Assembly (NCBI RefSeq): GCF_964204865.1
Contig: NC_135253.1
Coordinates: forward strand, 16,802,001-16,866,000
Reading direction: 5' to 3'
From: Styela clava
Taxonomy: Eukaryota
Length of the DNA stretch: 64,000 bases
Shown: one piece after another, positions 18,972-61,226 of the stretch
How the letters are laid out: the number at the start of each line of letters is the position of its first letter
Position numbering within the stretch: the first letter of the stretch is position 1
The notes under the pieces: model-generated
What the model was told of the DNA's origin: nothing
The model's database searches: none
The model's input: the letters and a program-made list of their open reading frames with translations, nothing else
Program-made: the position numbers and the translations under genes

Positions 18972-20066
18972 CTATGAAGTCGATGGAGTGGATGCAATAT
19001 TTTGTTTACAAAATACCGGCATGTATAGATTCATATAATTCTCGGTACTGAGAGCATGGAGGATAGGATTTAAAACCATGTGTAACATTGATAGCGGATG
19101 AGAAATAAAAATAACATATTTAATCAAACTATTAATGGCAGTAGGGACAGGTGTATTATTATTTACAACGTTATATATAGCAAGTCCATACCATACCATG
19201 TCGGCCGAAGCAAAAAGAATGAGATAAAATATAAACACAACCAATATCATTCCGATATGCTTAGCAGTCTTTGCATATTTTTCTTTTCTCCCTACCTTCG
19301 GGCGGCAGAGGCGATAAATAATAGGTGGATACGTTACAAGTACTACCAAAGCTGTAATGCTCATTGCCACTAATACGAGAAGCATTGCACAATTCATATA
19401 CAACTCATCAGTGATCAGACCGATGTCTCTTTCATCGTTCTTCATTTTGAGCATTCTCAGACCTATCGGTGCTATGTGAAGCGGTATAGTTGCTCCTATG
19501 GAAAGAATTAAGCAAAAAATGGACATCCATACACCCGTTTTATTCTTCATCCAATCTCTTGCTTTGAATGGAAAAAATACGGCAACAAACTTCAAAATCG
19601 ATAAAGAGGAAACAATTAAATTTGCAAATATTCCCGATGTTGTCAGCAATGTAGACCTCATTTTGACGTAAAATTCCATAGTTTCTTGAAATGAAAGATG
19701 ATGTACGTAACTATAAATCTCCACTCCTACAAAAACTGTTAAAGCGATCACGTCCCCGATTACAAGACTCAACACCAACACGTTAGTTGCAACATTGAGT
19801 ATGGTTTTTCTATAGCGAACAATCAATGCTAATAGAAAAATGTTTGCAATGTACCCAAATATTACAACAATCCACCAAAGAATGTCCGATACCAGCAGAA
19901 ATATTTCCATGTCTTCAACAAGCTGTGCAGCATAATTTGTAAGCGCAACATAGTTATTGATAAAACGAGTTTTTGAGCCTGGATTTACTCCCACCGTTGT
20001 AGTATTACTGTCGTCATTCGGATTTACTGTTGAAACCAAGTCGAGGGGGAATATTGACCCATCCAT
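18972..20066 (-). CDS. Intronless, atypical rhodopsin-class (class A) orphan GPCR, 364 aa
   Basis: Seven hydrophobic segments. TM1 GYIAN, TM2 LSLVIGD, TM3 end SILKFVAVFFP (DRY replaced by LKF), TM4 W, TM7 LNPILH. N-terminal N-glycosylation sequons. A splice acceptor lies a few bases upstream of the ATG. Confidence 0.9.
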   Translation of the reverse strand: MDGSIFPLDLVSTVNPNDDSNTTTVGVNPGSKTRFINNYVALTNYAAQLVEDMEIFLLVSDILWWIVVIFGYIANIFLLALIVRYRKTILNVATNVLVLSLVIGDVIALTVFVGVEIYSYVHHLSFQETMEFYVKMRSTLLTTSGIFANLIVSSLSILKFVAVFFPFKARDWMKNKTGVWMSIFCLILSIGATIPLHIAPIGLRMLKMKNDERDIGLITDELYMNCAMLLVLVAMSITALVVLVTYPPIIYRLCRPKVGRKEKYAKTAKHIGMILVVFIFYLILFASADMVWYGLAIYNVVNNNTPVPTAINSLIKYVIFISHPLSMLHMVLNPILHALSTENYMNLYMPVFCKQNIASTPSTS

Positions 20067-20513
20067 TGGTATCTAAATGAATAAGACAAGCTGCTAAAAA
20101 GAAGAGGACCAGTTATTTTTCACAAAATGATTTGGTGGATAGAAATAGAACCCAAATCAAACATAGAACTGTTTCACGAAACAATCTCATATATGGTATC
20201 AATTCTATCGTTTTAATTCAAGTGTATTTAGCACTGCTATTTGAAGATTGCTAAGAATATGTATAAAAGTAAATAAAACTTTCATGTTTGACACGTGTGA
20301 TATAGCTTGATTACGTGCAGCTGTATGGACCCGACCCTTGACCCCAGAAAAATTCTCTACTCTATATTGCGAACTTTTTTATGCGCATATTACGAATGTT
20401 TTGGAGAGCTGGCTCTTAGACGCTGGTTTACATGTTCAAAACCATCTCCTTAATTAAAATTATTCAACCACGTGGCTGCGAGACCAATTTTTGATTACTG
20501 CCATTACTGCCTC

Positions 20514-30300: not shown

Positions 30301-33300
30301 TTGTTGCAACACCAGGTGACTTGACAATATCACGACTGCATGCTTCGATCTGTCGACGAAATATTTCCACGGCTTTCGCAGCTTTAGCTTTAAAAATGTT
30401 TGTATCTATCAATATCATTGATGACAAAAAGTAAAAATGTCATACATCATAAATAAATATTCACAAATATTTTGTTGTTTTATCCATTCAACACTATCAT
30501 CATGAATGTTCGTTAAGATCATAAATATATAATTTTTATCATAATACCATACCTTCCGTTAACTGCACTCTCTCAGCATCAACCACTTGTTCAATATATT
30601 GATCGCCATAATCGAGATCTTCTTGTACATTTTGGCCCTCACTTTCTGTTTCTTCTCCACTTAATTTCTCCTCTTGCTCGTTTTCATCTAAGTCGGAAGC
30701 TCTTTTTCGATTCCCTTCATCTCCAGTAGAGTTTTGCCCTGAAATATTTTCTGTCGTCGAAACAGACGTTGTTTTAATATCAGTTACTTCATCTTCGTGA
30801 ACGGATGCTGATTCATTCTGGCTAGACGTGCCTCGTATTAATGCTGCAATCCAGCTTACCCTTTCAAGAAAGCCTGTAGGAATAAAAATAAATTATATGG
30901 TCAATGGTTTAAATGCGTGATAAGTTAGAATATACTTTCGTTTAGCTCTTCCTATTAACTCATGATTCTCTTTTCATATACTTTATTTCCCCGGCTAATA
31001 AATCGTCTTTCTAAACCCAATTTTTCGGCCTGATTAGTATTTTTTTTTTTTGGAGGGGGGGGGGGGGGCGTCTTATTCGGCAGGTATGTTTATTTTTCTG
31101 TGGTCCGCTCATATTTCGCAGAAGTCTTCTCAAACATGATTTGGGTTACTGTTACATTTGGTTTGATATATTTTATCATGTACTCGATGACGCCAAAGGG
31201 TCGGTCATGATATTTAGTTGACTTTGTACTGGCAGCTGTTCATAACTGGCTGGTGTCATGAAGCACTCCCTGTTTACGCCCGCCCGTTATCGGTACTTTA
31301 AAGAGAAAACACGGTCACCGAGATAAAGTGATTTATGACCCTTCGGTTTTGTGGATTCGACGGAAAATGACACAGACAGGAAAACACAGCAGTTAACAAA
31401 CCCACGGACGTACAGTGTAGTACTTATCACACCGTATTTAAAGGTTATTTCAACGTTCGGGCTAATAGGCTGTTTAAAATGATTGCCGCTTTTTAACACA
31501 AAATTACCGCTTCATTGTTGAGAGTGATAAATCTTGTGAGTATGATTCTACTAAACAAACATGATAGATAAATGATATAGTTAATAGGGTTGAGCATTTT
31601 CGAATGCCGATATTTTCACAATCAAATCAAATATTTTTCTCGAATGGAATCTAGAATCCTTGGGAAATGGGTGATTGTGTGTGACTATTTTATTGTATTG
31701 GGACATCTCAACACATGAATTACTCTAAACATAGAATCCATCACTCAAACAGTTCGCTGAACGTTCACACACAATAAAAAACACGTCTTATCAATAACTC
31801 ATTTGGTAGAAAAGAATGTCAGAATTGCTTAGAAAAAAAATGGCTTCAATAAAAAAAATTGCGAAATTGACCTTGACTTTTGACGGAAAGAAAAAAACAA
31901 GATGGTGGAAATTCGAAATTTTCGTCTGGCCCGATCCGATTTACTATTCGATTCAAAATTGTAATTTACTTTGCATTGATGTGACTAATTTCAGGCCAAC
32001 AAATGATTAAAACAAGCAAACGCAATGCGTATATTTTGCATATAAAGTGCAGAATTGAACTTGCGTATTATCTCTTTTAATAAAGTATAATAGTATGCAA
32101 AGATTTATCATATATATATTTCGACTATATTTAAACTAAGAGAGTATTGTTCATTATTGTTAGTATTTACAATCAAAAACATGTACCTTCCCACGTCAAC
32201 AACATGGATTCATTCTTCGTGGGTTCAGGTTCGTAATCCACTTGTGGAAAAATGTCGTTAAAAGCTTCAAACTTCGCCTTTTCGTTATTTTCTTTCCCAT
32301 TATCAAATCCGTTTTCATGTTGTTTGTCTTCAATTTCGTTTTCACATTCTTCTGTAACATCATAGCTTTCTTCATCGTGATCAGTTGCGGAATTTGTTGT
32401 TCTCATGCACCCGTTCATACACTGTGTACCAAATATGTATCCAAATACACGAAGCAATCCAGAAAATCTACCTGAGAATGAAAAATGGAGAAGATTAGTT
32501 CACTGAGCTTTGAAGTACACAGGGCATCGGAGTGTACTTTTTGCAAGATTTGTCACAGCGAGATCACGAAATTAGTTTAAGTTTGGAAACATTATTGTTA
32601 TATATGGTCACTAACTCACTGAGAACTGCAAGTATAAGTTTATGGAAAAAAATAACATAGAAAGTATGTTGGTGAGCTGGAACTTTTACTTGGAATGCAT
32701 AGGAATTGGAACCGAAATCCTTTCGGAGGCGCGTTTTATTGTATAATTACTCCCGTTCTTCTTATACGCTTACCTTGTGATTTCTCCGATCTATTGATTT
32801 CATCCCCAGCATTGTCCTCAGTCATTTCGATCGCTACTACTGCCAGTTGATCTGACTTATCGTTGTCTGGAAGAGATTGTCTGTTTGTTTCAGTAACACC
32901 ATTTTCTGTAATAATTTCCTTCTCTTTTGTACCTGGAGGTATTAAAATATTAAAATATATTAGAAATGAATCCCGAATATATTTCAGTACGTAAAATCAC
33001 TTTTTTGTCACAGTCATATGGAATTTATGTCCCAGTTTCCCCGTGTCGGAATCAAAACACTAATTATACCATCATTACCATGCATGGAAAAATAGAAAGC
33101 GTGAACTCTGGAGTGAATATGACAAACTTCTGAGCTTTCAAAACATTATATAAAAAGTCAGAATCTCAACCTTCATTTCCTTCGTTATATAATTCATCAG
33201 TTATTTCTCCTTCTTCTATATTAGACAAAGTAACGGTTATATTTGTTGCATTTTTCTTTGACGATTGAGAAGAATCTTTTTTCTTGAACTTAATTATGCT

Positions 33301-35391
33301 CTTAAATCCAAAACGTTTGTTCGACGATCTTCCTTTTTCTGTAACTATAGAAATTCTTATATAAAAAGACCAATAAAGAAATGCTCAAAATGTGTTCTTG
33401 TTGTCATGTTTTGTGTATTATAGAATTGGTAGATATATGAATAGGGCGTGCTGCTGTGGATCACTTTGCTGGGTCCTACGAGCCCGATATCCACTGCTGG
33501 TTTTACTGGTTTTCTATGTTTCACGGACACGACTTCGTGTGCCATTGGGTACAATTCTTTTAACATTTCATATGACATTCGGTAAAAGTGATTGAACATT
33601 TGGCTGGAATTTCGATGGCCATATTAGTCAATTGACCTTAGTCTACATATCGTCACGCTAATAACCGAATTGCGTAAGTCATTTTTAGCAGTTTTGAGAA
33701 AAACGTAAAAAACTTCCTAATGATTTTGTGTTGCAATTGAGAGTCAATAATTTGCCATGGTTCATTTTTTTGATCGTAGCCGGATCTAAGTTAATTTGTA
33801 TGACGCAGTTAAGTGACGACATAATAACGCACTGTGACTTAGGCAGAAATGTGTCTATGACTTGGGGACATACGCAATTTTGCAACTTCACTATATGCAC
33901 CAGTCCTGAAAACTAAACATTTCAAAAACGAAGGTAATTCTCAGTATCTACAATGTCTAATCCCCAAAATAGCTACTCAGTTTCAATTATATCATTTTTT
34001 ATGTTTAAAAATATATATTTCATCAATATAACACGTTCTGCACACCCACCGAAATAGGACTAAGATTAAATTTAAAGAATAAAACAGCAATGCACCCAAT
34101 ATAAAAGCCAACCAAGGTAAATTTGACTCGGACAGTGAATATCACTAGTGTACGTCTCCCTATACTGTAGTAAAAATTCAAATTAATACGCGCTAAGCTA
34201 GAATCCGAGATGCAAGAACTCGAAAATACTTCGCCGAGGTTATTTTGCCTTTGTGACGTCACAAGAGTACTGCGGTAACAAGGATAATTGATTATGACGA
34301 AACAATTCCTAAAATAAAATCTGAGTTAACAGACAGGTGCGCAGCATTACATAAATACCTATTTTATAAAAAAAACTCAAAATCGCCAAAAATGACTTAC
34401 GCAATTCGGTTATTAGCGTGACGATATATGTTTATAATGATAATAACCCGATCGTTGCAATGGGCCAGTAACAAGGTAACAACATCATACAATTAATAAA
34501 AAATTTTTGCACGTCACCAACTGAAGTGGCTGTGATGACAGGACGGGAAAGTATTTTTATTTTTATCTTGATTACACTTGGACCATGGTGCTATACTGGG
34601 GGTCACTGGGCAATATTTACGATTTTACGATTGGAACATGAACCATACCATCATGGATATATTGTCATTTTTTTTTATCTTTAAACAAAACAACGGCAAT
34701 TCAACTCTTCCTCGTCTCAATTTAAACGCCCATAATTCATGATATATAGTTTTATCCCGTCTTCGTGGAGAAGAATATTATGCAATTAACGAAGAAATTG
34801 CTATATTTTTTGAAGTTTTATTTCATTTAAAGCGATTGAAAACTTGTGAAAAAAAAAGGTTATTGAAATATATTGAAAATAAAATTAAATCTGATTTTAA
34901 ACATTAATTAATTATTAATCATCATCATTGACAAAACATAATGTTTTTATTTAATTTATTTCTTAATAATTAAAATGCGATAGACTTGTGAGTTTGATCT
35001 ATTATCTATTTCAAGGGTTTTGTCACAAGAGAGAGCAATATCGAACGCACGCGAACAATCTCTTAATCCGATGAAAATCAAATTCAGTGATAATCATAAA
35101 TAAGTTTATATCAATTTATCCCACGAAATTAAAAACTGAATTTTCTGAAAGATAAGTATGAAAAATTTGATGTCATCTGTTTAATATTGATATTTAATTT
35201 AAAAATATTATACCTCCTTTCTTTTTTTCTCTTGCCCTTCTTTTTTCTTTCTTCTTTTCCGTTTTACCCAAGGTTCCAGCGTCCTCCGATAAATTTGGAA
35301 CCTCTTTTATATCTACAGTTTTATAATCAACATCTTCGGTAACATTTTCCTCATTGTATTTTACGACTGATTCTGACTCTGGGCCATTCAT
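24338..35391 (-). CDS. NLR-A: NACHT-LRR protein of about 1200 aa with an acidic/basic low-complexity N-terminus; this allele is interrupted by a piggyBac-type insertion
   Basis: Exons (minus strand): 35391-35214, 33344-33171, 32932-32774, 32471-32187, 30873-30553, NACHT exon 30387 (or 30405)-27139 interrupted at 28049-29883, 26861-26554, 26483-26322, 25953-25789, 25486-25322, 24701-24528, 24439-24338. Walker A GDEGQGKTT, Walker B ILDGLDE, sensor-1 SSARP, GIPL, FTHQTVQEYLAA, and RI-type LRRs (LNLNNCSLT, LNLSKCEIT). The frame is continuous once the insertion is removed. Confidence 0.85.
28049..29883. mobile_element. Non-autonomous piggyBac-type element inserted in the NLR-A NACHT exon
   Basis: TTAA TSD at 28045-28048 and 29884-29887. 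TIRs CTCTTTGAAC(T/C)CTGAA. The 22-bp subterminal inverted repeat GAAAGCCGCTAAACCGGCTTTC lies at the right end. No long ORF. Confidence 0.92.
33651..34423. mobile_element. Non-autonomous DNA transposon with perfect 36-bp TIRs and ATAT TSD (Sola1-like), in NLR-A intron 1
   Basis: CGTCACGCTAATAACCGAATTGCGTAAGTCATTTTT and its exact reverse complement, with ATAT on both flanks. A 4-bp AWWT TSD is characteristic of Sola1, but the superfamily assignment is tentative. Confidence 0.8.
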
Positions 35392-36566: not shown

Positions 36567-39500
36567 ATGATATTCAAGAATGAAGATCAAGTTTCCACGT
36601 TAGATCCAGTTGCCACAAGTAACACTACTATTCCCTCGCACGAAAGTGGTATGACGTTTGGTGCTTGTAAAATAAATTTTATTGGAGAGGCATTACGAAA
36701 AATGACATATTTTGTTTTGTGTTTTAGATGTGAATATCCAGACGGACTGGATGGCATTATTCTGGGAAAGAATGAGAGGAGCCAGTTGGAGGTCTTTCAT
36801 AAATTTTATGACTAATGGTAATTGTTGCCAAATAGGAGCCTCAGCCAAAAGACAGGAACAACTAGAGTCTCCACAAAAAAGTAAACTATCCGGATTCCTA
36901 TCCGAAGACATAAAGAAATTTCGATCGCTACCAGATGTACGAGACCCGATGCTTTTTACATGGGAAGGTAAAATGACAGAATATCGTCAGCCTTTATATT
37001 ATTCAGTAGTCGTTATAAGTTAGGTATTCGAGAAATCCATAAATATAAAAATTCAAATTGAAAATTTAGAATATGGCATGATTTTTACTTACTTTTTTTC
37101 TGTGACATACTGCATATAGGATTCGTTGAAAAATTACGTTGGGTTGGGTCGGCCATCAATGAGTTTTTAGACCAGGATTCTGCGGAATATGATGAAATTC
37201 CACCTGGATCAATATCGGAATCAGCGAACATCATGCAGACCGATGCTTCACAAGTAGATAACGAATCACCTTCCGGTATGATTTTGTATTCTTTCGCTTC
37301 CACTTAGGGTTTTGTTTTTTATCAATTCTAAAAAAAACATCGTGTTTTAAAACAAGTGCTTGTTTTAAATCTAAATTTTTATGTATTTTTTGTATTTTTT
37401 ATTGAAATACCCCTTGCATCGCCGCGAAACTGTACGCCAAAACGTTGCAATCTGGCAGCTGCACACGCAGCCGGAATTATAATTTCAAAAATGGAAGTAA
37501 AATTTTTTATTTTGACTTTCACCACTATTGCGTACATTTATCGCCAATTTATATCTCCACCAAAGTCATAAGATTTTACCCGGAATGTTTAGCCGAGATA
37601 TCACAGAGACGTTTTGAGTGAGAAAAATCATGAAAATTAGCTCACGAGCCTACTACAAAAGCAATTCGATCAAGTGCAGCTCCTCGGCAAAACGAGTGGG
37701 TTACGATAATGAATAAATATGCTTATATCGGCGATAATCTACTGATATGAACGATGAGACACACTAACCTAGCCTATATGTTATATGTAAGAGTCCTCTG
37801 ATGCAAAGACGCCACAACTAATCTGTTATGACGCCATCATATGGATTTCGAGGTCATGTATTGACATTTTTCTCATAAAATGAAGTCATTGTTACTGTTA
37901 ATACTGTTCGGTTAGTTTATGCTTAGCATACTTTGTTTTTTAAGGTTGAAGTGAGTTTTTCAAAGTTATACAAACTCATTTATTCGATCGCATTTCAATT
38001 TTCGCAACGTGGTTTCATCGCAGCAGAGTCGTTCACGTAATGGCTTATCGGTTGCGTCTTACTGCGCCAACCACTGAACTACAGCTTGAGAAGATGTGCA
38101 TGAGCCAAACAATTCTTTTTGAACAAATCCCTACTTCCACTGCTACGGCAATCAATATTCATTAGGGCAAAATCAGAAAAGCGTTTTTATAATCTACATA
38201 ATGTAATTATTTGTAAAGGATATTTCTTGCAAATCGAATAACTTATGTTGCGGCATTTTATACAAATATGTGCGTTTAATATATTGTGTCTCAAGGATGC
38301 ACGCCATTTTTAGACAGAGATTGCATGTCACATTCCCGCAATGCTCTGATGAATTACGGCATAACTTGATTCACAGATCATGATGATGAATATCAGCATG
38401 AAAATATCAAGGACGAATCCGTGCCAATGTCTGATTATCGTTCAGATCTCAGGTCATACAGTCCAGTGTCGACCTATGCGTATCAATTACCACAAGGTTG
38501 GTATATCACTTAAGCCAAACGTCCCAACCAATTCAACCAGGGGTGTTTGGAGCATGGTTCAATACATATGAACTAGAAATTAGATCGCTGGTCTCTATGT
38601 TGGCATCATTTCATTCTTCGGGTAGTTCAACTTTCTACCAAATCAAACCATCTTCTCATCAACACTAATATGACGAGAAAGGGAATAGCATTAGAACAGT
38701 CTTTGGACACGAAATGGACCTATGAATCGTTGTGTTGTGGCATTCTTCATTTCGTTGTTATCGTTTTTGTAAAAAATCCTTTACTTTTTTACTACTGCAC
38801 CAATTGCTTTGAAATTCCCAGTTGTTAATTATCGTTGTTGTCGCTAAAAAGCTATCACTTTTTTTTTAATTTTTGCGGGCTCTATAGAATTCGTTTTCAC
38901 TTAGAAGTTTTATGTGATGAAAATTACAAATTGCGCACGTTGTGGCGGTTCCGAAATTGCATTTAGGGAGTTCTATAAAACATCTTATACTGCTTTTTGG
39001 CTTTCGTGTCCATATTTTTGAGTATTGCTCGCTTGTTTTACAAAAGTTCCAATAAGCGCATATTGAGTCTTTTAAAGGGCTCTTTTCAGTACATGGCACT
39101 AATCTCAGCAGTACAATTCGTGTATCCGCCATTAACAATATTCGGTTCTCTCATATCAGCCTCAATTGTAACTTTTAGTGCAAAATCAAATTAGTGAAAT
39201 CATACAAATCAATAATGTTCATTATTGTATATAGACTGAAATTTAAACCACCCAAGTGCGACAGTGATAGCTGTCAAAGTGTTGTGTTTATGGCATGTGA
39301 TTACCAGTGAATTTTAATCATTTTCATTTATCATTGTGCATACTAATACTCACTAAAGACGACATTTATAAGATATTAATCCAAATGTCACATTGTTTAT
39401 ATTATTTTACAGAAGAAACTGCATCAACTGGGTCTTTTCGTTCATCAGAACGATCTTCTATTAATGAAGATGAAAAAAAGAATATTCAAGGAGAAAAAAT

Positions 39501-42500
39501 CCATGGTATTTGTTTCTTTAATCATAATTGAACAATTGAGCATAACTGAACTAAAATACAACTAGAAATCGGGTTATTAGTATATACAATAAATTGTATC
39601 CCAAGCATTCATCATTGTAAATTTACTGAACTGACATTAGTCATGAAAGGTTATACGGTCGAGAGAAATGAAAAAAGGGTTCTCAGAGGAAAATTTTAAT
39701 ACTAAATTTGTATATGCCCCATCGTGTATCATTCGTTAAACATCAAAATAACTAGATTGTGTCGTACAGTTGAATATTTTGCAAATTTAGAAAAAAGAAA
39801 CGCTCTCTCCAGTTTTCGTCACAAAGTTGCGAAAAGGTCATCAACAATTGCAGGGATGGGCCCCATAAACGGAATATTTGATATTAAAGATGTCGGAATT
39901 AAAAGCATTCCTGAGCTTATTGAAATTGATAAGCAAGTCCCTGTTTCCAAAACGGAAGTACCAGATGTTGTTGATGAAATAAACGAAAAAGAATCAGATG
40001 TAGAGACAAAAAAGAAAAGATTGAGACATATTGCAATTACGGGTGGAATCGGATATGGAAAGACAACTCTCCTGAGACGTTTCACAAGGATGGCATTAGA
40101 TAACAATGTATTGGTTGGTGATGCGGAAAAGGATGAACCAACTTCCGGTTTTAATCCTTTTTCGGGGAAGGGTTCATTTGATTTTTTTCATTTCATTTCT
40201 GTAAAGGATCTACCGCATGTGCGGTGCACACCTGTTCAACTTTTGTTTCGATCACTTTTGGGTAACTTAACAGAAGAAGAAGCAAAGGCTGGATGTGAAT
40301 GGCTGAAATCTTCAAACAAGAAAATTCTACTAGTGATTGATGGTTTAGATGAGCAGGGGTGGAGTTTTAAAGCTGAATTTGATCAAATGGATTACAACGA
40401 CACCGCAAGCGCAGAATGCATCATTGCAAATATCCTTGGTGGCCATCTATTTCCCGATGCATTTTTGTTAACTACGTGTAATGAATCAGTACTACAATTC
40501 TTTAACGAGAATTTACGACCTGATAAGATTTTAGCACTCAATGGTTTAGAAGAAGATGATATTGTAAAGATTTTTAAATCTATATCGGATGCATCGAATA
40601 AAAATGCAATAAAAAATATAGACGCTGAATCAATGTCAACTTGTTCTACACCACTGTATCTGGTAATGAATTCGTTGATTGCGAGTCAAGAAAGAAGCGT
40701 CAAAGTTGCATCTGGGCCAACAGTTATATTGAATTTAATACGATTATTTGTTTATGAAAAGTTTTCTAACAACCCAAATATCACATTCATCCTCAAGAGA
40801 CTGAAGCAAACGGCCTACACGATGACTATGTCACATAGGTATCGTTTCAGAGAAGATCAAATCATTGACATTGGAATATCTCTTGAAGATATCCGAGATC
40901 TATTAATAGTAACCGCTCAAGGAAAAAAGTCTAAAAGAAAAGGCAATTACACAGAAATGCAATTTTCTCACATGGCCATCCAAAAAACACTTTGCGCTTT
41001 ACATGTTTGCTCGATGAGCGCAAAAAGCTTTTGTATGTTCGTCACAAATCATTTGGCTCTACCGCCTTTCTCTTTCATCAGAAAAGTGATATGTGCCATT
41101 ATTCTCAATTCATCAACGCGGCAAAAATATCAGCAGATCGTAAAAGGTAATTTTAAAGTAGATGAACATAAAGTTTAATTAGTTGTGTAAAGGTTTAGAC
41201 CATTATGTTATCTAATTGAGATGAACAATGAGGGTTTAAACATACTTCGTACTGAAAACAATTTTTCATTCGGAATAACAGTTGGGTGCATTTTTCTGAA
41301 TTCCAGTATTGAACATATACTAACGCACAGATCTGCAAATAAATTTCAAATGATGCTGTTTAATTTTAGTATTTTCCCTAAGTTCTAAATTATTACCAAT
41401 TATTACCATGTTGCAGTACCAAAACTTGAAGAAAAGATTGCTTTTCTCCAAGATTTTCTACGAAAAATGTTGTCGTCTGATACCTCACCAAGACACAAGA
41501 TTGAAATACTTTCCGCGTTGAGTGAGTGTGATGAGAGTACTTTTCGGGCTCTAGATAAAGATTTCAGCAAGATATCTGTATCAGATATTACTCTCGCTCC
41601 GTCAGACTTAAACAGCTTATCGAAAGTCATCACAAACTCTGGTCGAATTGATTTACTTGATCTCACAAGCTGTTACCTGGATGACAAAAATATTGACACA
41701 CTGTGGAGTTTGATAAAAACTGGTAAAGCAAAGGTAAGATATTGTTCCCTGCGTTCATTGCCTAATATGGTATCTCTCGTGATGCAAAAAAAAAAGATTT
41801 GTCACGATCACGATGGTCAACATTTGTACTTCAACTCTTTTTTTGTCGCGTATTTTTTCTCAATAACCTCAAATAATGTTTTGATCAACTTCCGGACCTC
41901 CTGAAGTATGCGCAACAAGATGGCGCACAACCTGAACTCAGGTTGTGTACCAGGTCAGGGTTCAGGTTATGCGACATCTTGGTGCGCATAATTCAGAAGT
42001 AACCAACTTTCTATAGAATATCGCACGACTTGGCACGTAATCAACTTATGTCAATACTTGAAAATTTGTGACGAATGGTTTATGAATAAAACCGTGAACG
42101 TGAAATTGGCGTCAACCTAACTATCACAAAAATTAAAAAATAAATGATTTCTTCCGACTACCATGCGAATTATTTTACCAGAAGAATATACTGTATTTAG
42201 ATTCGGAAACTATGTCTCAAAGAAAACGGTTATCTTGAGTTTGCTTGTAACTCTTTTGGAAAACTTGTAGATCATTGCTTTGTGGAAGAAGTTGATATCA
42301 GCGATTGTGATTTGGACAAAAGCAAAGTTAGACATTTGCAAAAAGCTTTCAAACACAATGTTGAGGTGAGTCGAAATAAAAAGAAGTGAGGGTTACTCAA
42401 ACAATGATTATATATTCTCATTTATATATATATATAAATATCTCTACACCCTAGTATTTTAAAAAGGATACATCAAAAGACGCATTGCGTCGATGTTTGA

Positions 42501-43893
42501 GTATGTTTAGCGAAGGTTTTTATGTTTGTACAAATTAACATTTTATACGATGTGTAGCTTGATGGACTTATCCTCAACAACAATCCGCACCTAGGCAAAG
42601 CAGGAGTCGAAATTATAGGAGAACTTGTGCATAACTGTGGCCTCGAAAAAATTGGATTCGGTAATTGTGCTATAACACCGAAAAGTCTGTCTCGATTTCA
42701 AAGAGGATTGAAAGGAACAAAGGTATTCTAAAAATACATCGAATTTCAGTCCTAAAAAACTTTTTACCTACACATAATGCTTCAGTTTAGAAAATTGGAC
42801 CTCAGCTCAAATCCATACATGGAAATTCGCGGCTTAGAAAAGGTTGGAGAAATACTACATGAATGTCGCGTTCAAGAATTGAACATCAGTAACTGTCAGC
42901 TAAAAGACAAGGAAATAAGAAAGTTTCAAATAGCTCTCAAGTCGGCTAAAGTAATTTTCCATTGAATATATATTAGTGTTTCATGCATATTTTTCACGTT
43001 ATGATTAACGCTTTTGAAAACTAGATCAGACTGGATCTGAGCTGACAATATAGCAGACCAACTGCAGTCTCTTTCGGAAGGAAACTCGGGCCGTATGCCC
43101 ATCCTCGTTCCTAAACTGAAAGAAGATTTGGGGAAATTCCTTTAACCGTTAAATCATTTATGTTATAAAATTTCTTGAAACAAAGTAATAAATTAAAAGT
43201 TCCCGTTGTTTCAGAATTTTTAATGCAAAATGGCACTTAAATAATTTCATCGATTTCAGAAAATCGGATTTTCAGATTGATTCATGAAAATAAAACGAAC
43301 GACACTCCTGTGAAATAGTCCAATATTTGGAATCACTTTGTTTGTTTTTTTCGACCAGATTTGTCACATTCATTGCACAGTTATAATGTGAAGTGCAAAA
43401 TTTGTTTATAGGTGACTAGATTCCTAGGTTTCATGGTTGAAATATATAAGCATATAAATATTTATTTAAACACAAATACAGATGACAGTATTGGATATTA
43501 GCTCTAAAACTTATCGTGATGCTACGGAACACAATATAATTGCTATATCGCGACTCTTGGGTCACGTTAGTAAAGAAATCAAAATGAAGAATTGGGATAT
43601 TTCGGAAAAAGCTTTCACCATGTTACAAGAAAATATGAATTCAGCAGCATTACCGGTGAGATGTAATTTTGGTAATTTGAGAGAAACTATTAGTAATGAC
43701 TGTATTGAAATAACAGTAATCGAAAATATGCGTTCAAAAGGAATTTTAACTCGGAGCGAAATGCAACGAAATTTTACATGGAAGATAAAATACTAGAGTA
43801 TGACTTATGCAATCACTTTTTTGTATTTTATCACAGGATCTTAAAATAACTTTTGGAACAGATGGACAACAAGTTGTTATGGCTCGTAAATAA
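36567..43893 (+). CDS. NLR-B: NACHT-LRR protein, about 1036 aa
   Basis: Exons 36567-36648, 36728-36967, 37120-37275, 38377-38496, 39413-39505, 39770-41146 (NACHT), 41417-41733, 42201-42365, 42558-42722, 42786-42950, 43482-43655, 43837-43893. All are GT-AG and in frame (3111 nt). Walker A GGIGYGKTT, Walker B VIDGLDE, CSTPL, FSHMAIQK, and LRRs (LDLTSCYL, LDLSSNP, LNISNCQL). The small N-terminal exons are less certain. Confidence 0.88.
41893..42004. mobile_element. Short palindromic MITE (same family as 47621-47731, related to 17212-17443), in an NLR-B intron
   Basis: CGGACCTCCTGAAGTATGCGCA.CAAGATGGCGCACAACC...GGTTATGCGACATCTTGGTGCGCATA.TTCAG; nearly the reverse complement of 47621-47731. Confidence 0.8.
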
Positions 43894-47375: not shown

Positions 47376-50300
47376 TTAGGTTTGCTTTGTTAATGTACAT
47401 CTTCCATTGTCTTCATAAACGAGCTTGAAGTCCTGAAACAATATCATATGAACCAGCACGGAAAAAGCATATGTAAACATCATAGAATGATATTTAAAAC
47501 ATTAAAACATGCCGCATGCAAACCATTTACATGATATTGAAATGACACATGAAAACAGACTTAAACATCGAGCTTAGTAGAGAAAGGGCACTACAGACGG
47601 TTGCATATATACTGATTTTTGGTACTCCTGAAGTATGCGCACCAAGATGTCGCATAACCTGAACCCTAACCTGGTACACAACCTGAGTTTAGGTTGTGCG
47701 CCATCTTGGTGCGCATACTTCAGGAGGTCCGATTTATTTATACCTATTTTTAATACAACTTACTGGGTGAGCAGAATCGTCGATATGCTGCTGCACCATG
47801 CTTTTCATTCTCTCGTTTATTTTCCAGTCTATCATTTTCAATTCTTGAGTAACATGAGGTAATAGTTTTGATATTGCATCGACATAAGGCATAGTAACAT
47901 ACTTTTTCAATTCATGAGTCGTGATGTCTAAGACGTCCATCTGTAGTATAAATACGGATGTTAAAGGCTACTTGGAAATAGTAATATATGCATTCATGTT
48001 AAAACAGTTTCACGAAGGCCGAATCGAAGTAGTATGAAATCATTTACAATACCGGCGGTCATGCTTCGCTGATCCCCGGGTCGCTGAAATTGGGTTAATG
48101 CGTAACGCAAGGTGCGCAATTTTTAATTTCTATGACATCATCACACAAAAATTAAGTAAAAACGAATCCATATGACTCACCGACACTTTTGAAATAAATA
48201 AAAGTAATGGCCTACTAGCGACAACAACAATCTGAATTCAACCACTGAATATTCAAAAGCAATTGGTCGAGTAATCATAGAGAAACAACAATAACAAGGA
48301 GAAGAATACTAACAACAACAATTCAACAAAACGGTTCATATGTTCACTTTATGTTCATTACAACGCTTCATTACCTTATTATTTATTGTAAACTTACCGT
48401 TGCCTCGCCCAAACCTTTGGCAAACGCGGAAATCTCTTCAGCTGTTTGATCACATCTACTCATATTTACTTTTTTCGCGGAACTGTCTTCAACGATTTGT
48501 CCCATGATACGCGCACCTTGGGTTCCCATAGACCGGTTGTAATTGATGTCTAGTATTTCAATCTAGGAAACAATATTGGAAGTATTGGGTATTCAAGTTC
48601 AAGGTCATGAACGTTGTCTAAATATGATGAAATAATATGTGTTACCTTTGTCTTTCCCAGAGATCGATGTAGGCATCTTATTTTATTCTTCGTTAAATTA
48701 CATTTTGCAATATTCAATTTCTTGAACTCGTTTTGGGAATTTTTTACAACATTTCCAATAATTGCAATCCCAATTGAGCCGAGTTTTTCACTTCTGCTGA
48801 TATCAACTTTGACGAGCTATAAGGGAAAAAACGATTTAAGATATTTAGTTTGTGGTTGTTTTTGTGATAAACAGTAAACATTTTAGTCTGGTGATGGTGA
48901 CTATATGTATATTGCAGTATATGTACTTCAAAATATATTCAATAAAATGTTTTGATGAACAGTTTTCAACGGTATTGCCAGGCTGCAGACATATTACCAC
49001 TAAATCAAATGAAAATATTGGAAAACATAATATACAAGAAATTTGTAGACAACTATTTATATATTAATTAATTATTATTATAAACTATTATACTAGCAAT
49101 AACGTGTTTAATAATATCTTTCATAATTACATACAAACTTGTCACAAACCTTGGTAGGAGGAAAAGAAGCGCATTTTTGCAATCTTTCATCCGTTAATGA
49201 ACAATCATTGATGTTAAGTTTCTCTACTTCACAGTGTACAATCATTTTGAAAAGAGTTCCGCAATCAAAATCGTATCGGTGATTACTATGAACGTCCAGA
49301 GATTTTATCTGTAAGTTATAGTCACAAAACATTAGATAAAAAAGTGGGTTTAAATAGCGATATTTGAATCAGTGAATCGGGGTTTCCCTGATGATGCAAC
49401 TTTCAACACTTGGCCATGTAGGCGGATCTTCAATATTCCGAGTTTATTTCAACAAAATGTTTAGTTTGTTTCAAGTACAAAATATATATTGATAGTAAAA
49501 ATGATTTCAATATGAGTCGCTCGACTTTAGGGGCATGCCTATTGCAATTCGAAAAACACGAGTTTTGTTCCCAATAACGATATCGCCTTTTTCGACAAAT
49601 TTAAATTTCACCACATACTTTTCAATATGGTAATGTTGAAGTTTACTGTTATTTCCATCATTACCTGCAAATTAGACTTTTGTATTTCATTCCAAATGAT
49701 GTTCATCTTTTCTTCATTCAAGTCAGTGTCCCAAAGTTCGAAGATATCTAGTTTATGCATTCGGCTCAGTATCCGACCAAGTACATACGCGTCAGTTGGA
49801 GTCAAAACAAATCTACTTAGCTTGACGTAAGAAGGGTGCGAATCCAACAAAGAATCTGCTCCAGAACCAGATTCGTAGAGAGAAGATAGAAGCTCCAGAT
49901 AATCTTGTCTTGATAAATGTGCTTCTAGTGCTTCTTTAAGAAACACAGCAAGCAATACCTTTTTTTCCTCGTGATCTGAAACTAGATTACAATACGAATT
50001 GAAATGCAGACAAAAACAAAGAGAGATTGAATCTAAGCAAGATGTCAAATTATAGACAACCTAACAACTCTCACAAATGTGATGGAACAAAGTCAAAACA
50101 CTATTAATAGTATAAATTACAGTTTTGATAGAATTGTTTTAATACATTTAGTTGAATTAAGAAACGTATAATTAGAATTGAACTCCTAGCAAATATATGT
50201 AATAAAAGAGACCGACTTTGGTATATATTTATTTTCGAAATTACGTCAGTTGATTATTCAAAAGAAATGGCTTTATAAATATTTTCTGGACATAAGTTAA

Positions 50301-52255
50301 TAAGTTAAAAAACAAATAAATTAATGCAAGGTTACTTTAAAAACTATATATATTATCAGTTTCACAGAAGTTATAGCAGCTTGCCTTTTTCATTCGAGGG
50401 ATTCAGAAAATGACTACATGATCATTTTTGAAAACCATTCAATGATAAGTAATACCATTCAATATTATTAACAGGAAGGACCCGTTCCTACCTTGAAAAA
50501 GACCGTGTGTGGCTTCGTATGTTTCTCTGTTAAGAAGAAAACCACACAAAAGACGTCTGACAACAGAAAAGTGGGGAACATTGATATTTTCCTCTAGAAA
50601 CTGTCTGAACTTATTGACATCCATCTTTGATATGTGCAACATCGCAAACGTTTCTTGCACCGACTGATGACAAAAGAACATGACGTAATCGTCACTGAAT
50701 AACTTCTCTCGAATTATAATCGATGTTTGCCTCGGAGCAAAAATGATAAGATCTTGGGCGTCTTCCGATTTCAAATCAACAGTTTTGAAATCGTCTTCCG
50801 TAAAAAGTACTCTTCTCTCTACAGTTCCTTGGAACGCAAGTTTTTTTAATTTTTGAAGAGTCGAACTTTCTTTAGAAATTGTAGCGTACTTTGATTCTAC
50901 AAAGCATTGGATGAAGACAGTCATAACCCCAGCCATTGTGTCGAGAGAAAAATCCGTTTTGCAGATGAAAACTAAAACTGTGAAAATGAGAAAAAGTGGT
51001 GTTCTGCACATGATCAATAAATTGGGACATCGTTCACTCAAGCGGCTCCAAACGGTCGTATCTGATTTTGGTAATGCAACGGCAAGGTGTTCAATATCAG
51101 GCTGTTCCAAACCATTCAGAACAATAATTTTATCCGCTCGCAGTCTGTCTTGAAAAAATCTTATTTTATGCTGTCTTGATGATGTGACTACCCAAGCATT
51201 TGGAAAAAGCTCACCGCATAATAAATTGTATATTATGCTTGGCACAGTGGTAGAAGTAAAATAATCAATTTTTGCAGATTCATTTTCTAATTGCCAGTCA
51301 TACTGATCCAAACCATCAATGATAAAAATACAATTTTCTTGATTATTAATAAGCTTATTGTATCCAGCATTCAACTCGTCTTTGCTCAGTTCCTTTACCA
51401 TACTCTTGAAGATAAGTTCACATGGTGTAAATGTTCCGCCAATTGGTAAGTCCCTTACATTTATAAAGTGTCCGAAGAACGGTTTTCGTCTCCGAGGCAT
51501 TGTGAGCCTTCTGCAAACATCTGGTCTTTCACGAATTTTTACGGAGATTTTGCCTTCAGCAAGTCCCCTTGCATATCGCTTTAACAGTGTTGTTTTTCCA
51601 CTACCAGCTCCACCAACTAAAGAAACATGGCGGCATCTTGTTTTGCCGAGGCTATCATGTAGTTGTTCTAATGCAACACGTTGACCCTTCCATTTATCAA
51701 CACCTGGAGTGAAATTTGATTCTGGAGAATATTGCTCATTTCCTGCAGCTTCTACACCGCGATAAAAATCCACTTGGAGCAAAATGGGACACACTTCAAA
51801 ATCAGGTTCTTTTAACGGACTGTACTCTGCAACTACACTCGCTCCTGTTTTGTTTTCAGTTGTAATTTTGATCTTGTTGAAAAATCCTCTAACTGACTCG
51901 CGTCTTCCTGTTTAAGATAAAAAAAAAAGGAAATGAAAACTTGTTATCTTACCAAATAAATATTTTGTTTTTCTGATTTGATACAACGTTATTTTTATGA
52001 TATCACTCAAGGAAGCCGATTCGAAATGAAACCGCTGACTTCAGTAGAATTATGCAAGAAAATCACCCAAGAAACCAATTTGAGCAGATAACTATGCTAT
52101 ACCAATGTCTTACCTCTGCTACTAGCTTTTGGAATTGATTCATTACGAGAATGAATTGTTGTAATCGAAGTATTATGGATACCTCCGCCAATTATAGTCG
52201 AATGTGAATTGCTCACTTGTAAAAGCTCTGGTTGTTCGACGAAAACTTGTGCCAT
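47376..52255 (-). CDS. NLR-C: NACHT-LRR protein, about 867 aa, with a short N-terminus bearing a RHIM-like motif
   Basis: Exons (minus strand): 52255-52114, 51907-50492 (NACHT), 49981-49665, 49308-49150, 48816-48646, 48562-48398, 47940-47764, 47432-47376. All GT-AG, 2604 nt in frame. Walker A GGAGSGKTT, Walker B IIDGLDQ, sensor-1 VTSSRQ, CRTPL, FCHQSVQETFA. An in-frame stop lies upstream of the ATG at 52255. Confidence 0.88.
47621..47731. mobile_element. Short palindromic MITE in the last intron of NLR-C
   Basis: GGTACTCCTGAAGTATGCGCACCAAGATG...AACCCTAACC...CATCTTGGTGCGCATACTTCAGGAGGTCC; long inverted arms. Confidence 0.82.
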
Positions 52256-55200
52256 CAATTTCAATTCAGAAAAAGGTTTATTATATAAATTAGTTTATAA
52301 GATCATCGAATATATTCTCGAAATGTCCAAATATGTTTCACCAAGCTATAACAAGGATGTTATGATTATATATATTAATAGTGCAGGAGAAATTCACAGT
52401 AAAGAGCTACTGTCAAATGTCAATCGTTACGTCACATTATATGGTGTGGTAGGATCGCTGATTTAAAGAAAGCCAGAAATCTTGGTTAAAGCAATATGAT
52501 ATTTTGTACTCGATCAAATAAAGTAGTTCGGCTGTTTGCTTACACTTTACAGCACTTATCATTTGAGAATCGAGTTAAGTTTCCGAATAAATCCATGTTT
52601 TCACATACTTTGTATATGCTATCATAGTTTGCTGTTTAAATAAATACCAAAAAATCTGATATAACATGACACCGGGTTTCAGGAATGTTCTCCGATCAAT
52701 GAATGTCGACAACACATTTTTAATTAATGGCATTGTAATACCTAATAAAATGGTCTCAAGTTCGTTACTATCGCCTCCGCTCCATGCTTACAATGTAAAT
52801 ACCAATAATGACATATTGTAGCATCGACAAGCAGATGGCATACGGAGAGCATTGGATAGATACTTTATGCACAGGGTGTCATGTACAATCTTGTCACGGG
52901 GTATTTACTAAATTAGTCGTAACTGAGCTACGATACCTAGGCTTTGCAAGGAACCAAATTATAAACAGAGGTACCCACTACCCACGATGCTCCTTGCTAC
53001 AGTTACTATTTACGACTGTTTGATATTGTCGCCACTCCATCTGTTTTTCTATGCAGTTCATTACATATTAACAATACGATATAATTTATCATCCTTGACA
53101 ACACCACAATAATGTACTGACTGTTTATATTGCATTTGTCATTTCGTATTTTCTACGAGTTATTTCACTTGAAATTTATCATAAACGCCACAAACTTTTT
53201 GAATGATATGACGCAAATAAATGATGGATTCGAGACGTGAAAAATCGTCTCAAAATTTTTGAGTTAGTTTCCTGAATTACTGACTCATAAGTATTTGTAC
53301 AAAGTGTAATATGCAATAAATCATATAGGTGAGGCATGATTGAAATGATACTACAAATATGAAATATAAAACTTCATTCAACCGTTGCACTAATACCAGT
53401 GATCTTTACTTCCTAAACAACTTCCACATTGTTGATGGTACACTAATTTATACACTATACAAAAAACGTGAATTTTACCCACATGTATTAAAACGCTTTT
53501 CCAGCCTGCAAAAATATTATCTACAATTTTAATGAGTCGGCGATTATAACAAAGCTTATAACTCGTGTCAGCGCCCAACTCCTGATACAAACTTTCAAGG
53601 TGAACCGTGAAAAATCTCTCCGCGTACCTTCTGTAAACGAAAGTTTTTTCAAAATACCAATTGTTTCCTGGCAAGTTACTTCCCGTTCAACTGTTGTTTT
53701 ATCATTGCCTGGCTCTGTTTTGAGTCATTGTATACTATACACTCTACATATTATGAATAGTTGAATTTAGCTAGCGAGAAGCTTTCATAAACTACGTTTA
53801 TCTCGAATATTCCTCGGTAAATGAATGTATCATGTTTATCTTTATAGAATAAAGCTAAAAAAAGTTCTCGTTTGTCGACATACTTCATTCGAAAGATTTA
53901 CAGAAAATTTCTTAAAAAGGTGGTTAGCGGTAACGAAATCTTATCTTAAAGGCTTTGTCATATACAAAAGGAAATTTCTATGATTTCCCGCAGATGCTTT
54001 TCGGAATATATCCCTTCGCAACCAGTTTCTTTAAAGATAATTCTGATAAAGCACTATTACCACAAATGACCGGCGTTTGCCTTTTTATTGAGACATAGGT
54101 AGCAACAGAAAGCATAAATACAGTATGTGACGGCAAAGTCGCGGTTTCATATATATTCTAATTTACCTTCACATTAATTACCAAGAACAGCCGGCCAATT
54201 TTGGCAAGCACCTCAACTATGATAAATTTTGAACAAGAACAACAAAAACATAACGACAAAACGATCCATATCTTCATTTCGTGTCCAATAATATGGCAAA
54301 AAGTGAAAATCCAAGTTTTATTATCTAACCTCACAACATGAACCTGAAGTCAATATTTGAAACTGGCTGAAATTTAGCTGTCTTTGATTCTTAAATTAGA
54401 AAGACGTGCTGTTTTATGTCGCAGAAAAATATTTACATTCATGTCGCGCGACTCATCGAATAGTATTACCCGAGGTGACTGTATGTGCCAACGTCTCTAC
54501 AGTTACAAGGTAAATACTTCCAAATACAATGACAGAATGGTGCAATTCAATACAACAAAATATCCCACGCTTATTATGCGTCACGCTATCTCTTTTTAAT
54601 AAAAAAGGTGGGCGTTGGATATTTCAAAATTTAATTCAACCATGGGAATATGAGTCTCTAAGTCTCTTATTTCCATACAAGTCTAATAATTCCTTTGTGA
54701 TGTATCTACAATGTACACAGTGTGGCGTGTTTTTATTACTTCCGTCGAGACTAGATCGCGGGAGGTTCTGCTACATATTTTCTAAAAACCAATGTCGACC
54801 GTTTAAAAATTTATATATGTGAGTATCCTATTCGTTTCATTTATTGTGCCGTATTTTTCATCTCGCAGTTTCGCATCTAACAGAACGAGTGTGGTCCTTC
54901 AATTAAAAATTCACCGATGAGTGGGTATGACATCCCATTTTGGCCCTTATACATCCCTTGTAATACAATTATACACCAAGTACAATATTAATATGATATA
55001 TATCTATGATGCTGACAATGTAAGCATATTATGTAGTTTAATAAATTCCCTGAGTCAATATCCTGAATACTTTATGTCTGTTATAAAGTATAAAATTAGA
55101 AAACACAAATGGGGAATAAACTAACTCAGTTATAACAAATCTGCTTCTCGAGGCCATGCAAGCATGATTGTCTTCGTTATAGGATCTCGCCTTCACTGCA

Positions 55201-58810: not shown

Positions 58811-61226
58811 CACTGTGCAACACTAAAAAAAGTACAGGGTATCTGCAGCAATTTTTGTATACATAATAACGTAGAAAATTTGTTTCAGGCTTTCTTTTTG
58901 TTGAATTAGGTATAGTTTTTGCAAAATTGCCACAGTCGTGAATTTCAGTAAAAACGTCAAAAATGGGTTACTGCCGTCTTTGCGGTCACATAATATGTGT
59001 ATTATATTATAAATCTTGAGAGAAAAACACAGTTTAATATACACATATTATGTACATTATTTATTATTTGCAAAACACAACAGCCTGTTTCAACCAAAAG
59101 TTCATCAGGTGTTTTTTATTCAAATAGAATTGTATTGGAATTTGTGTACATTAAACTGGCAGGGTAGTAACTAGCTGTAATGAGTTTACAACAGTGTAGC
59201 ACTAAAAGAAAGTTTGTATGCTCAATGTTATACTTTTCTAGTTTCAGTTTATTGAAATATGTGACTTACCAGTTTGCAACAAATTACTACTCATAGCTAG
59301 GCCCCACTGTTACTGCTGGAAAGACCTACCCTGATGTGCAGATGTAACATAAGTACTAGAGTGGCAGGCAAGGGTTATAGTATAGGCTTTGACGATGACT
59401 TCAAGACAGTGCAAAAATGATCCAAGCAAATTCTGCTACATATGTGGCGAATTAACATTTGCTAAAGAAAGGCGCAGTATTACCAGCCATATCAAGAAAT
59501 TGTACAAGGCGTACTTTCATTGTCATATAGGAGACCAAGACAAATCATGGGCTCCTCATGCCTGTTGCCTTACATGTGTGAAAACATTGAGCGCATGGTA
59601 TGCAAAAAAGAATGTGCACATGAAGTTTGGTGTTCCAATGATTTGGCGAGAGCAGAAAGATCATTCTAATGATTGCTATTTTTGTCAGCAGGACTATACC
59701 GGCTGTACAACAGCAAAAAAGAAGAAACGCATTGTTTACCCAAATTTGCAGTCAGCAATACGCCCAGTTGGGCACTCAAAAGAATTACCTGTACCAAAAC
59801 CCCCTGATCAGGAAATGTGGAGTTCAAGCAGTGGGGATGAACATTGTAGTGATGGAACAGTAGGATTTTCTGATTCAGAAAGCAATGATAAACCAATACT
59901 ATTTTCTCAAGATGCTCTGAATGACTTATGTAGAGATCTTTATTTAACCAAAGACAAAAGTGAACTTCTTGCATCAAGGCTTAAAGAACGAAATCTTCTT
60001 AGAAAAGGGGTGAAAATAACATTATACAGAAAACGTGCACAAAACTTGCATGTTTATTTCACTCTGGCAGATGATTTATGCTTCTGCAATGACATTGTTG
60101 GACTTTTTGAACAACTGGAAATACCATATGATAACACCAACTGGCGACTTTTCTTAGACGCATCCAAGGAAAGCATAAAAGCTGTTTTGCTCCACAATGG
60201 TAACACCCTGCCATCTGTTCCTATAGCTTACAGCACAACTATGAAAGAATCATATGAAAATTTAAAAACAATTTTAACAAGCATACAGTATAACGTCTAT
60301 AAATGGCATGTTTGTGCAGATTTTAAGGTTATAGCCATGCTCACTGGCCTTCAGTCAGGCTATACTAAATTTTGTTGCTTCTTGTGCTTATGGGACTCTA
60401 GAGCAAGAGTTGAACACTATGTACGCAAGCACTGGCCCGCTAGAGATGAAATTGAGCAAGGAAAACATAACATCAAACACAAACCACTTCTGCAAAGTGA
60501 TAGAATCCATTTACCACCTTTGCATATTAAACTCGGTTTGTTCAAGCAGTTTGTGAAAGCACTGGACAAGGATTCCTTTGCATTTGCATATCTTGCAGAA
60601 AAGTTTCCTTCCTTAAGCCGAGCTAAAATAAAAGAAGGTATCTTCATAGGTCCCCAAATTCGAAAAATTGTTCTTGATGAAACTTTTGACACACATCTCA
60701 CGAGAAAAGAAAAATGTGCCTTTGAGTCATTCAAGAAAGTTTGTGATAACTTCCTGGGAAAACATCGTTCAGAAGACTATGTGCAAGTTGTGAATGATCT
60801 ACTGCGTCATTTTCATGATATTGGATGTAACATGTCTCTAAAAGTTCATGTGCTCCACTCTCATTTGGATTTTTTTGCTGCGAATCTTGGCAATGTGAGT
60901 GATGAACATGGCGAAAGATTCCATCAGGATATTTCATTAATAGAGAAACGTTTTAAAGGAAAATGGAACACTGGCATGTTGGCAGACTATTGCTGGAATT
61001 TAAAAAAGGATGATGCCACTCTACACAAGAGGGTTAAGAGGACAAATGTTGTTTAAACTGGTGAATTCGGTGTTTTTTTTTCAAAATAAATAATAATAAA
61101 ATACATGAAAATGGTACCTAATCCAGAGAAGTAAATGTCAGATTTGGAATCAGCATACTTTTCTTACACCGAGAAAGGTCTTATATATCTTGTACTTTTT
61201 TTTCACTTCAAATTTGTTGCACAGTG
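58811..61226 (+). mobile_element. Full-length autonomous Chapaev3 (CMC superfamily) DNA transposon
   Basis: TIR CACTGTGCAACA / TGTTGCACAGTG, 3-bp TAA TSD, subterminal AAAAAAAGTACA inverted repeat, and a single intact transposase ORF. Confidence 0.9.
59395..61056 (+). CDS. Chapaev3-type transposase (553 aa from the first ATG)
   Basis: N-terminal Zn-binding Chapa-like region (FCYICGE, GDQDKSWAPHACCLTC, PMIWREQKDHSNDCYFC). Putative catalytic motifs LFLDAS, VCADFKV, PPLHIKLG and SDEHGERFHQD. No stops. Confidence 0.92.
   Translation: MTSRQCKNDPSKFCYICGELTFAKERRSITSHIKKLYKAYFHCHIGDQDKSWAPHACCLTCVKTLSAWYAKKNVHMKFGVPMIWREQKDHSNDCYFCQQDYTGCTTAKKKKRIVYPNLQSAIRPVGHSKELPVPKPPDQEMWSSSSGDEHCSDGTVGFSDSESNDKPILFSQDALNDLCRDLYLTKDKSELLASRLKERNLLRKGVKITLYRKRAQNLHVYFTLADDLCFCNDIVGLFEQLEIPYDNTNWRLFLDASKESIKAVLLHNGNTLPSVPIAYSTTMKESYENLKTILTSIQYNVYKWHVCADFKVIAMLTGLQSGYTKFCCFLCLWDSRARVEHYVRKHWPARDEIEQGKHNIKHKPLLQSDRIHLPPLHIKLGLFKQFVKALDKDSFAFAYLAEKFPSLSRAKIKEGIFIGPQIRKIVLDETFDTHLTRKEKCAFESFKKVCDNFLGKHRSEDYVQVVNDLLRHFHDIGCNMSLKVHVLHSHLDFFAANLGNVSDEHGERFHQDISLIEKRFKGKWNTGMLADYCWNLKKDDATLHKRVKRTNVV

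Follow-up and report, generated by a model that had tools for sequence, protein, structure and literature searches.

A charge-free N-terminal segment as a candidate amyloid-type signalling motif in a Styela clava NLR without a death fold

On the minus strand of the DNA analysed here (a 64,000-nt stretch of contig NC_135253.1 of the tunicate Styela clava, hereafter the window, to which all coordinates without a locus or contig prefix refer), we find an NLR gene whose product carries a predicted-disordered N-terminal segment as the sole occupant of its effector slot, as judged from RNA contigs, Pfam, AlphaFold2 and a death-domain profile. Our tentative reading is that residues 12-35 (52151..52222), lying within a 47-residue predicted-disordered tail, constitute a divergent, non-RHIM, amyloid-type signalling motif. 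We favour such a handle because the segment stands alone in the effector slot, because of its composition, spacing and apparent constraint, and because it belongs to a receptor family that seems to use short motifs instead of death folds. The case for this first exon itself is weaker than that for the NLR-caspase motif match described below, since neither a partner nor an orthologue was found.

Gene structure and protein anatomy

The small first coding exon proposed in the earlier note on this DNA is real: RNA contigs splice position 52114 to the NACHT exon in six of the seven runs examined, the six coming from three studies. The joint is exact in X1, X2, X4, X6 and X7 and differs by one letter in X3, and X9 has no contig across it. 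Nine runs cover the locus; their status as RNA is a tool's guess, yet the contigs skip GT-AG introns. The exon (52255-52114, minus strand, like the rest of the gene) opens with an ATG at 52255 and runs for 47 codons to a phase 1 donor (AG|GT at 52114/52113), in frame with the acceptor at 51908/51907. Its translation is as originally read, with 52154-52225 corresponding to residues 11-34. Intron 1 (51908..52113, GT-AG, 206 nt) is followed by exon 2 (50492..51907), which encodes a pre-NACHT helix, the NACHT, the winged helix and the start of HD2, as assigned from PF05729, the structural model and a fold search. The remaining HD2 and the leucine-rich repeats are encoded by exons 3-8 (47376..49981, comprising 49981-49665, 49308-49150, 48816-48646, 48562-48398, 47940-47764 and 47432-47376), as defined by splice joints, translation and the model. 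The spliced product has 867 residues and is identical to NCBI XP_039249535.2 of S. clava.

Upstream of the ATG, sequence and contig coverage define a 90-nt 5' UTR (52256..52345) that contains a three-codon ORF (52306-52295), the stop of which is in frame with the main ATG. All six contigs extend to at least about 52315, beyond this in-frame stop (52297-52295), and inspection of the sequence between the stop and the ATG at 52255 revealed no AG. The 5' end of the X6 contig consists of 22 non-genomic letters, and its genomic part starts at 52345. Together with the AG at 52347-52346, these letters fit the 'Chordata 1' spliced-leader consensus tabulated in Table 1 of PMC3795323; the AG (52346..52347) is thus the trans-splice acceptor, with the leader joined before 52345, in the X6 contig only (one run of seven). 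Because the leader is joined at 52345, and because an in-frame stop with no acceptor behind it precedes the ATG, the N-terminus is final and lacks an upstream death-fold exon. An upstream death-domain exon is ruled out by these same features and by the absence of a profile match.

The leader 22-mer itself occurs 345 times genome-wide, frequently in pairs on one strand with 5-6.5 kb between the members. None of the three copies that were inspected (L023-L025) has a GT donor after it, and the copy in L025 adjoins ORFs that appear integrase-like by eye; this arrangement suggests that leader copies may have been captured in retroelement repeats.

As is typical of NLRs, a NACHT with Walker A and B motifs is followed by leucine-rich repeats. 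Pfam identifies a NACHT (PF05729, 57.9 bits, E = 1.5e-15), a winged helix and HD2 in the 867-residue protein. AlphaFold2, with an alignment of 67 sequences, produced a model of mean pLDDT 84 in which a helix (46-68) precedes the NACHT and a repeat solenoid follows it; residues 1-43 have a pLDDT below 50 and are predicted disordered, in a region where the alignment is shallow. A fold search with this model returned NOD2 as the top match (E = 1.3e-27) and ranked NLRP3 high. No CARD, PYD, DD or DED precedes the NACHT by Pfam, by a genome-derived death-domain profile or by AlphaFold2, in agreement with the earlier note. The profile, built from nine caspases of the same genome, gave no match in window 24-64 kb, and its positive control scored 92.8 bits. 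Residues 241-249 (about 51295-51325, minus) form an extended Walker B with Gln, as in several paralogues. Glu is the usual residue at this position, and the substitution may make ATP hydrolysis by this receptor slow.

At least 87 NACHT matches are present in the S. clava genome (87 of 194 candidates scored), and the nearest relatives of this NLR among the matches listed are 37-38% identical to it. A quick tree with 69 rows places it, with a support of 92 and on long branches, in one group with two NLR genes located in the window at 24341-35391 (minus) and 36567-43673 (plus). These neighbours are arranged head to head at a distance of about 1.2 kb. The N-terminus of each is long and acidic or disordered, shares one short stretch with that of the other, and has no copy of the paralogue motif described below. 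Elsewhere in the window are a rhodopsin-family receptor ORF (18972-20072, minus) and an intronless 556-aa ORF (59386-61056, plus), which has only weak RNase H-like matches and is probably transposon-derived. Genes of SGT1-like and NEDD1-like type lie on the other side of the exon 1 gene from the 7TM/NLR pair.

Short motifs in paralogous NLRs and caspases

In many paralogous NLRs, small exons ahead of the NACHT exon encode short motifs that are beta-prone. Over 40 upstream stretches, a profile built from seven paralogues gave scores as high as 61 bits for sense ORFs versus at most 9.4 for antisense ones. An unsupervised search of 67 termini, from which the exon 1 protein was withheld, found a motif in 19 of the 67 with an objective of 143.5, compared with 28-67 in four shuffled control sets run with fewer seeds. 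The first EM run had settled on death-domain and pre-NACHT helices. Before EM, seven distant proteins were left out for their length, as were 11 termini that were redundant and ten with death folds or with ZU5-like, transposon-like or membrane parts.

A profile of ten NLR sites placed three caspases at the top of 30 caspase ORFs, at 15.1, 11.4 and 11.1 bits, with the next at 7.2. In all three, which are close paralogues (two of them helped to set the register, and an upstream coding exon is possible), the motif is found at residue 6-8 (p = 0.003, 0.011 and 0.014). These caspases (L118:1360-2184, plus; L121:1483-2403, minus; L122:1261-2193, plus) contain His-Gly and Gln-x-Cys-Arg-Gly motifs, and no death fold was detected in them by Pfam or in the surrounding 40 kb with the genome-derived profile. 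Chance matches to a similar family profile go as high as 16.7 bits in 17,473 ORFs, so the link to the caspases depends on the position of the motif no less than on its score. A motif common to paralogues such as P0034 and to three death-fold-less caspases supports the idea that motif-based coupling may operate in tunicates generally, and the NLR-caspase match in S. clava provides a directly testable pair. Search listings of the open-access literature yielded no published account of motifs of this kind in the NLRs or caspases of tunicates, and the accessible portion of the S. clava genome paper (PMC7540406) makes no mention of NACHT, NLR or caspase.

Several further architectures accompany these genes. 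One phase-1 exon of 99 nt, which encodes a beta-type repeat of period 8, recurs at least 150 times (150 of 213 candidates scored), and most copies stand in tandem ahead of NACHT exons (G000 C5:107-175 kb and 232-289 kb, C1:31.36-31.77 Mb and others; loci L081-L110). The 30 copies inspected all have AG and GT ends. Such arrays could correspond to a long repeat domain or to a bank of alternative exons. For the repeat array of the paralogue P0064, AlphaFold2 returned a low-confidence helical model (pLDDT below 50) and no beta-solenoid, a point against the amyloid-type reading. By eye, the death-domain caspases L116:1459-3420 (minus) and L124:1456-3174 (minus) have an internal beta-alternating motif, with two repeats in L124, and caspases L119 and L136, which lack a death fold by Pfam, start with other short motifs. 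The NLRs P0005, P0047, P0084 and P0012/P0015 continue into a region that we take to be ZU5/UPA-like, to which Pfam assigned no family in P0015, and they end in a short N/I/G-rich tail at a site that a death domain might be thought to occupy. In P0005, this tail fits the shared NLR/caspase motif (p = 0.01). A ZU5-like region is likewise found at the N-terminus of caspases L117 and L129.

By profile comparison, exon 1 is outside this motif family. When held out, it scored at best -1.9 bits against the main NLR/caspase motif, a value reached by 67% of shuffles, and it did no better than its own shuffles against four further motifs and two paralogue profiles. To the eye, the second half of the segment had resembled the paralogue/caspase motif and the first half a second paralogue motif; both assignments failed these held-out tests. 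A regular expression that backed the by-eye match was not counted, as it had been built from the same sequences.

The exon 1 segment and its possible readings

Residues 12-35, the candidate motif, are unusual in composition. This stretch of 24 residues has no charged residue and no proline, ten of its positions are V, I or T, and two loose 12-residue pseudo-repeats can be made out by eye. On the ad hoc score, in which Thr is counted twice, no window in any of the 67 other tunicate NLR or caspase termini scores as high, and neither does any of 1,288 antisense 47-mers. All three allelic changes within it are synonymous (neutral chance 0.014-0.037), a tiny count, in a gene where the changes listed elsewhere are also mostly synonymous (12 of 19); the changed codons that flank it are both non-synonymous (L11S and R37G). 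The segment appears to be under constraint, and we regard its charge-free composition and variant pattern as hints, not proof.

Searches for relatives of the segment were negative. It is single copy in a genome search and matches no Pfam family. Pairwise comparison among 88 N-termini gave no relative at p up to 0.01 and three at p up to 0.05, where about four are expected by chance. A PDB sequence search with the motif gave no match, the ESM Atlas no usable match to residues 1-50, and metagenome contigs 90 pattern matches, none confirmed; residues 1-60 gave five candidates among shorter proteins, none of which scored. Among the relatives, tree rows, shorter proteins and metagenome contigs searched, we found no orthologue of the segment-bearing NLR. 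The kinase, caspase or pore-former with the same motif that the earlier note had suggested looking for did not emerge either: 50 caspase stretches held 7,043 ORFs, with a best score of 37 (37-44 with shuffled queries), the best score in 17,473 ORFs of 14 TIR and 70 kinase stretches was 41 (38-43), a gasdermin search gave no match, and the genes adjoining the NLR include no evident effector. The genome also holds an expanded set of kinases (L205-L242; clusters on C5, C6, C10, C18 and C19) with the catalytic domain on one exon, presumably IRE1/RNase L-like from their appearance by eye.

Nearly as likely as an amyloid-type handle is a tail that does not signal at all, being vestigial or a low-complexity leader, in a receptor that would act through another NLR, such as one of its two neighbours, or through a NACHT or LRR surface. 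The lack of a family-motif match and of a partner in our searches is consistent with such a tail, as are the many tunicate NACHT proteins with almost no N-terminus and the two neighbouring NLRs, which group with this receptor (support 92, long branches) and are also without the family motif. A charge-free and proline-free extreme of composition, RHIM-like spacing and exclusively synonymous variants are, on the other hand, unexpected for a drifting linker.

The earlier note had proposed that the segment is a RHIM-like motif, and we consider it improbable that it is a true but degenerate, or cryptic, RHIM co-assembling with RHIM-type partners. The register on which the proposal was based stands: in the first half of the segment (residues 12-23, 52187..52222), L12, V14, T20, I22 and G23 are spaced as RIPK1 Y531, I533, I539, I541 and G542, and four of these five key positions agree with RIPK1 at exactly this spacing. 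Residues 1-43 are also predicted to be unstructured, as a RHIM region should be (pLDDT below 50, with a shallow alignment there). The core does not hold up. In the part of a recent study accessible to us, the RHIM core is given as (V/I)-Q-(V/I/L/C)-G, Y531, I533, I539 and I541 of RIPK1 are required for nucleation, and mutations of I539 strongly lower it (10.64898/2026.02.19.706818). The exon core, T-I-I-G, departs from this at two of four positions, with Thr at the essential aliphatic position that corresponds to I539 and Ile in place of Gln. Three of the four RHIM aliphatics at i, i+2, i+8 and i+10 are therefore present (L12, V14 and I22), and T20 occupies the third place.

The pattern Phi-x-[ND]-[SAC]-x-x-[Phi/T]-x-Phi-G, in which Thr was allowed post hoc, fits the exon and 0.09% of 20,000 exon shuffles, and occurs at 0.17 per 10,000 antisense residues. 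The exon does not fit the strict form without Thr. Two N-termini among 80 do, both from Clavelina lepadiformis NLRs (0.12 expected), which counts for an amyloid-type motif and for a degenerate RHIM alike; these (P0083, residues 149-158; P0111, residues 47-56) come closer to strict RHIM spacing than the Styela exon and have no PF12721 match. Aliphatic spacing alone shows no N-terminal enrichment (2 versus 2.7 in shuffled sequences).

Profile searches speak against RHIM membership. Neither the exon nor the 29-residue segment matched PF12721 at E up to 5 or 10, a comparison in which HMMER filters hide weak scores, and none of the ten candidates scored in the S. clava genome passed the Pfam cut-off of 20 bits. 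The best RHIM-like stretch in the genome (L021:1477-1566, minus) reached 18.2 bits, which could be taken in favour of a RHIM system; there is no ORF of at least 130 aa within 10 kb of it, so its coding status is not supported. The RIPK-like kinase-death-domain gene of the genome gave no RHIM match, in agreement with PMC12119088, and tunicates are described as having no RHIM or no RHIM-bearing RIPK1 in the available sections of PMC4262963 and PMC12119088. With the core off, no PF12721 match and no partner carrying the motif, the exon segment is not a RHIM by the tests applied.

A tail with another job, such as folding back to hold the NACHT off, localisation or turnover, would fit a segment that appears constrained and has no counterpart on the effectors searched, and is hardly probable given that AlphaFold2 predicts neither contacts nor structure in residues 1-43 (where the model has no alignment depth) and that no positive evidence points to such roles.

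Possible mechanism and comparison with known systems

If residues 12-35 are an amyloid-type motif, as we tentatively favour, ligand binding at the LRR would allow the NACHT to oligomerise and would thereby bring several tails together. The gathered tails could then stack as a cross-beta seed, on which the matching motif of an effector, in all likelihood a caspase or an adaptor, would be templated; the oligomerisation, the amyloid and the partner, in both its existence and its identity, are predictions of this model. A bolder extension, which we think possible but rather unlikely, is that tunicates replaced death folds in many NLRs by short amyloid motifs that couple them directly to death-fold-less caspases, forming a fungus-like amyloid inflammasome of which exon 1 would be a private, RHIM-spaced member. 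We know of no output for tunicate NLRs that lack death folds. If such tails are amyloid handles, receptor-templated amyloid signalling, which to our knowledge has so far been shown for fungal and bacterial NLRs, would extend to tunicates, which among invertebrates are the closest to vertebrates.

The closest functional parallels are fungal NWD2/HET-S and PNT1/HELLP and bacterial BASS, in which a NACHT or NB-ARC receptor carries an N-terminal polar/aliphatic motif of about 20 residues. In the Styela STAND receptor, too, the candidate motif (residues 12-35) is short and N-terminal. In the fungal and bacterial systems, the effector next door bears the same motif, whereas none was found among the neighbours of the Styela gene or in the stretches searched. 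A private type of motif is nevertheless plausible, because the accessible parts of the literature describe many motif families in fungal and bacterial NLRs, each matched between receptor and effector (10.1101/2020.01.06.895854, PMC12881547, PMC7889193, PMC8086366).

With the RHIM of mammalian RIPK1 and RIPK3, the segment has in common the spacing of the aliphatics and the glycine. It differs in having Thr for the first core aliphatic and Ile for the core Gln, and in lacking an aliphatic counterpart of RIPK1 M547, five positions after the glycine. The carrier is a kinase in RIPK1 and RIPK3 and a receptor in Styela. In Drosophila, PGRP-LC, PGRP-LE and Imd carry a cryptic RHIM. These proteins illustrate that non-canonical cores can signal, as stated in the available text of PMC4262963.

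A RHIM in the place of a death fold would not be new in a chordate NLR, since the same text already predicts amphioxus BF82280 to be a RHIM-NACHT-repeat protein and adds that tunicates appear to lack RHIMs (PMC4262963). BF82280 and the Styela protein are alike in being chordate STAND receptors with a short motif in the usual place of a death fold; they differ in that the amphioxus motif was found with a RHIM profile, whereas the Styela segment is missed by PF12721. Finally, unlike vertebrate NOD2 and NLRP3, to which its identity is about 15-18%, the Styela receptor is without a CARD or PYD, and it shares with them the NACHT-HD1-WHD-HD2-LRR fold.
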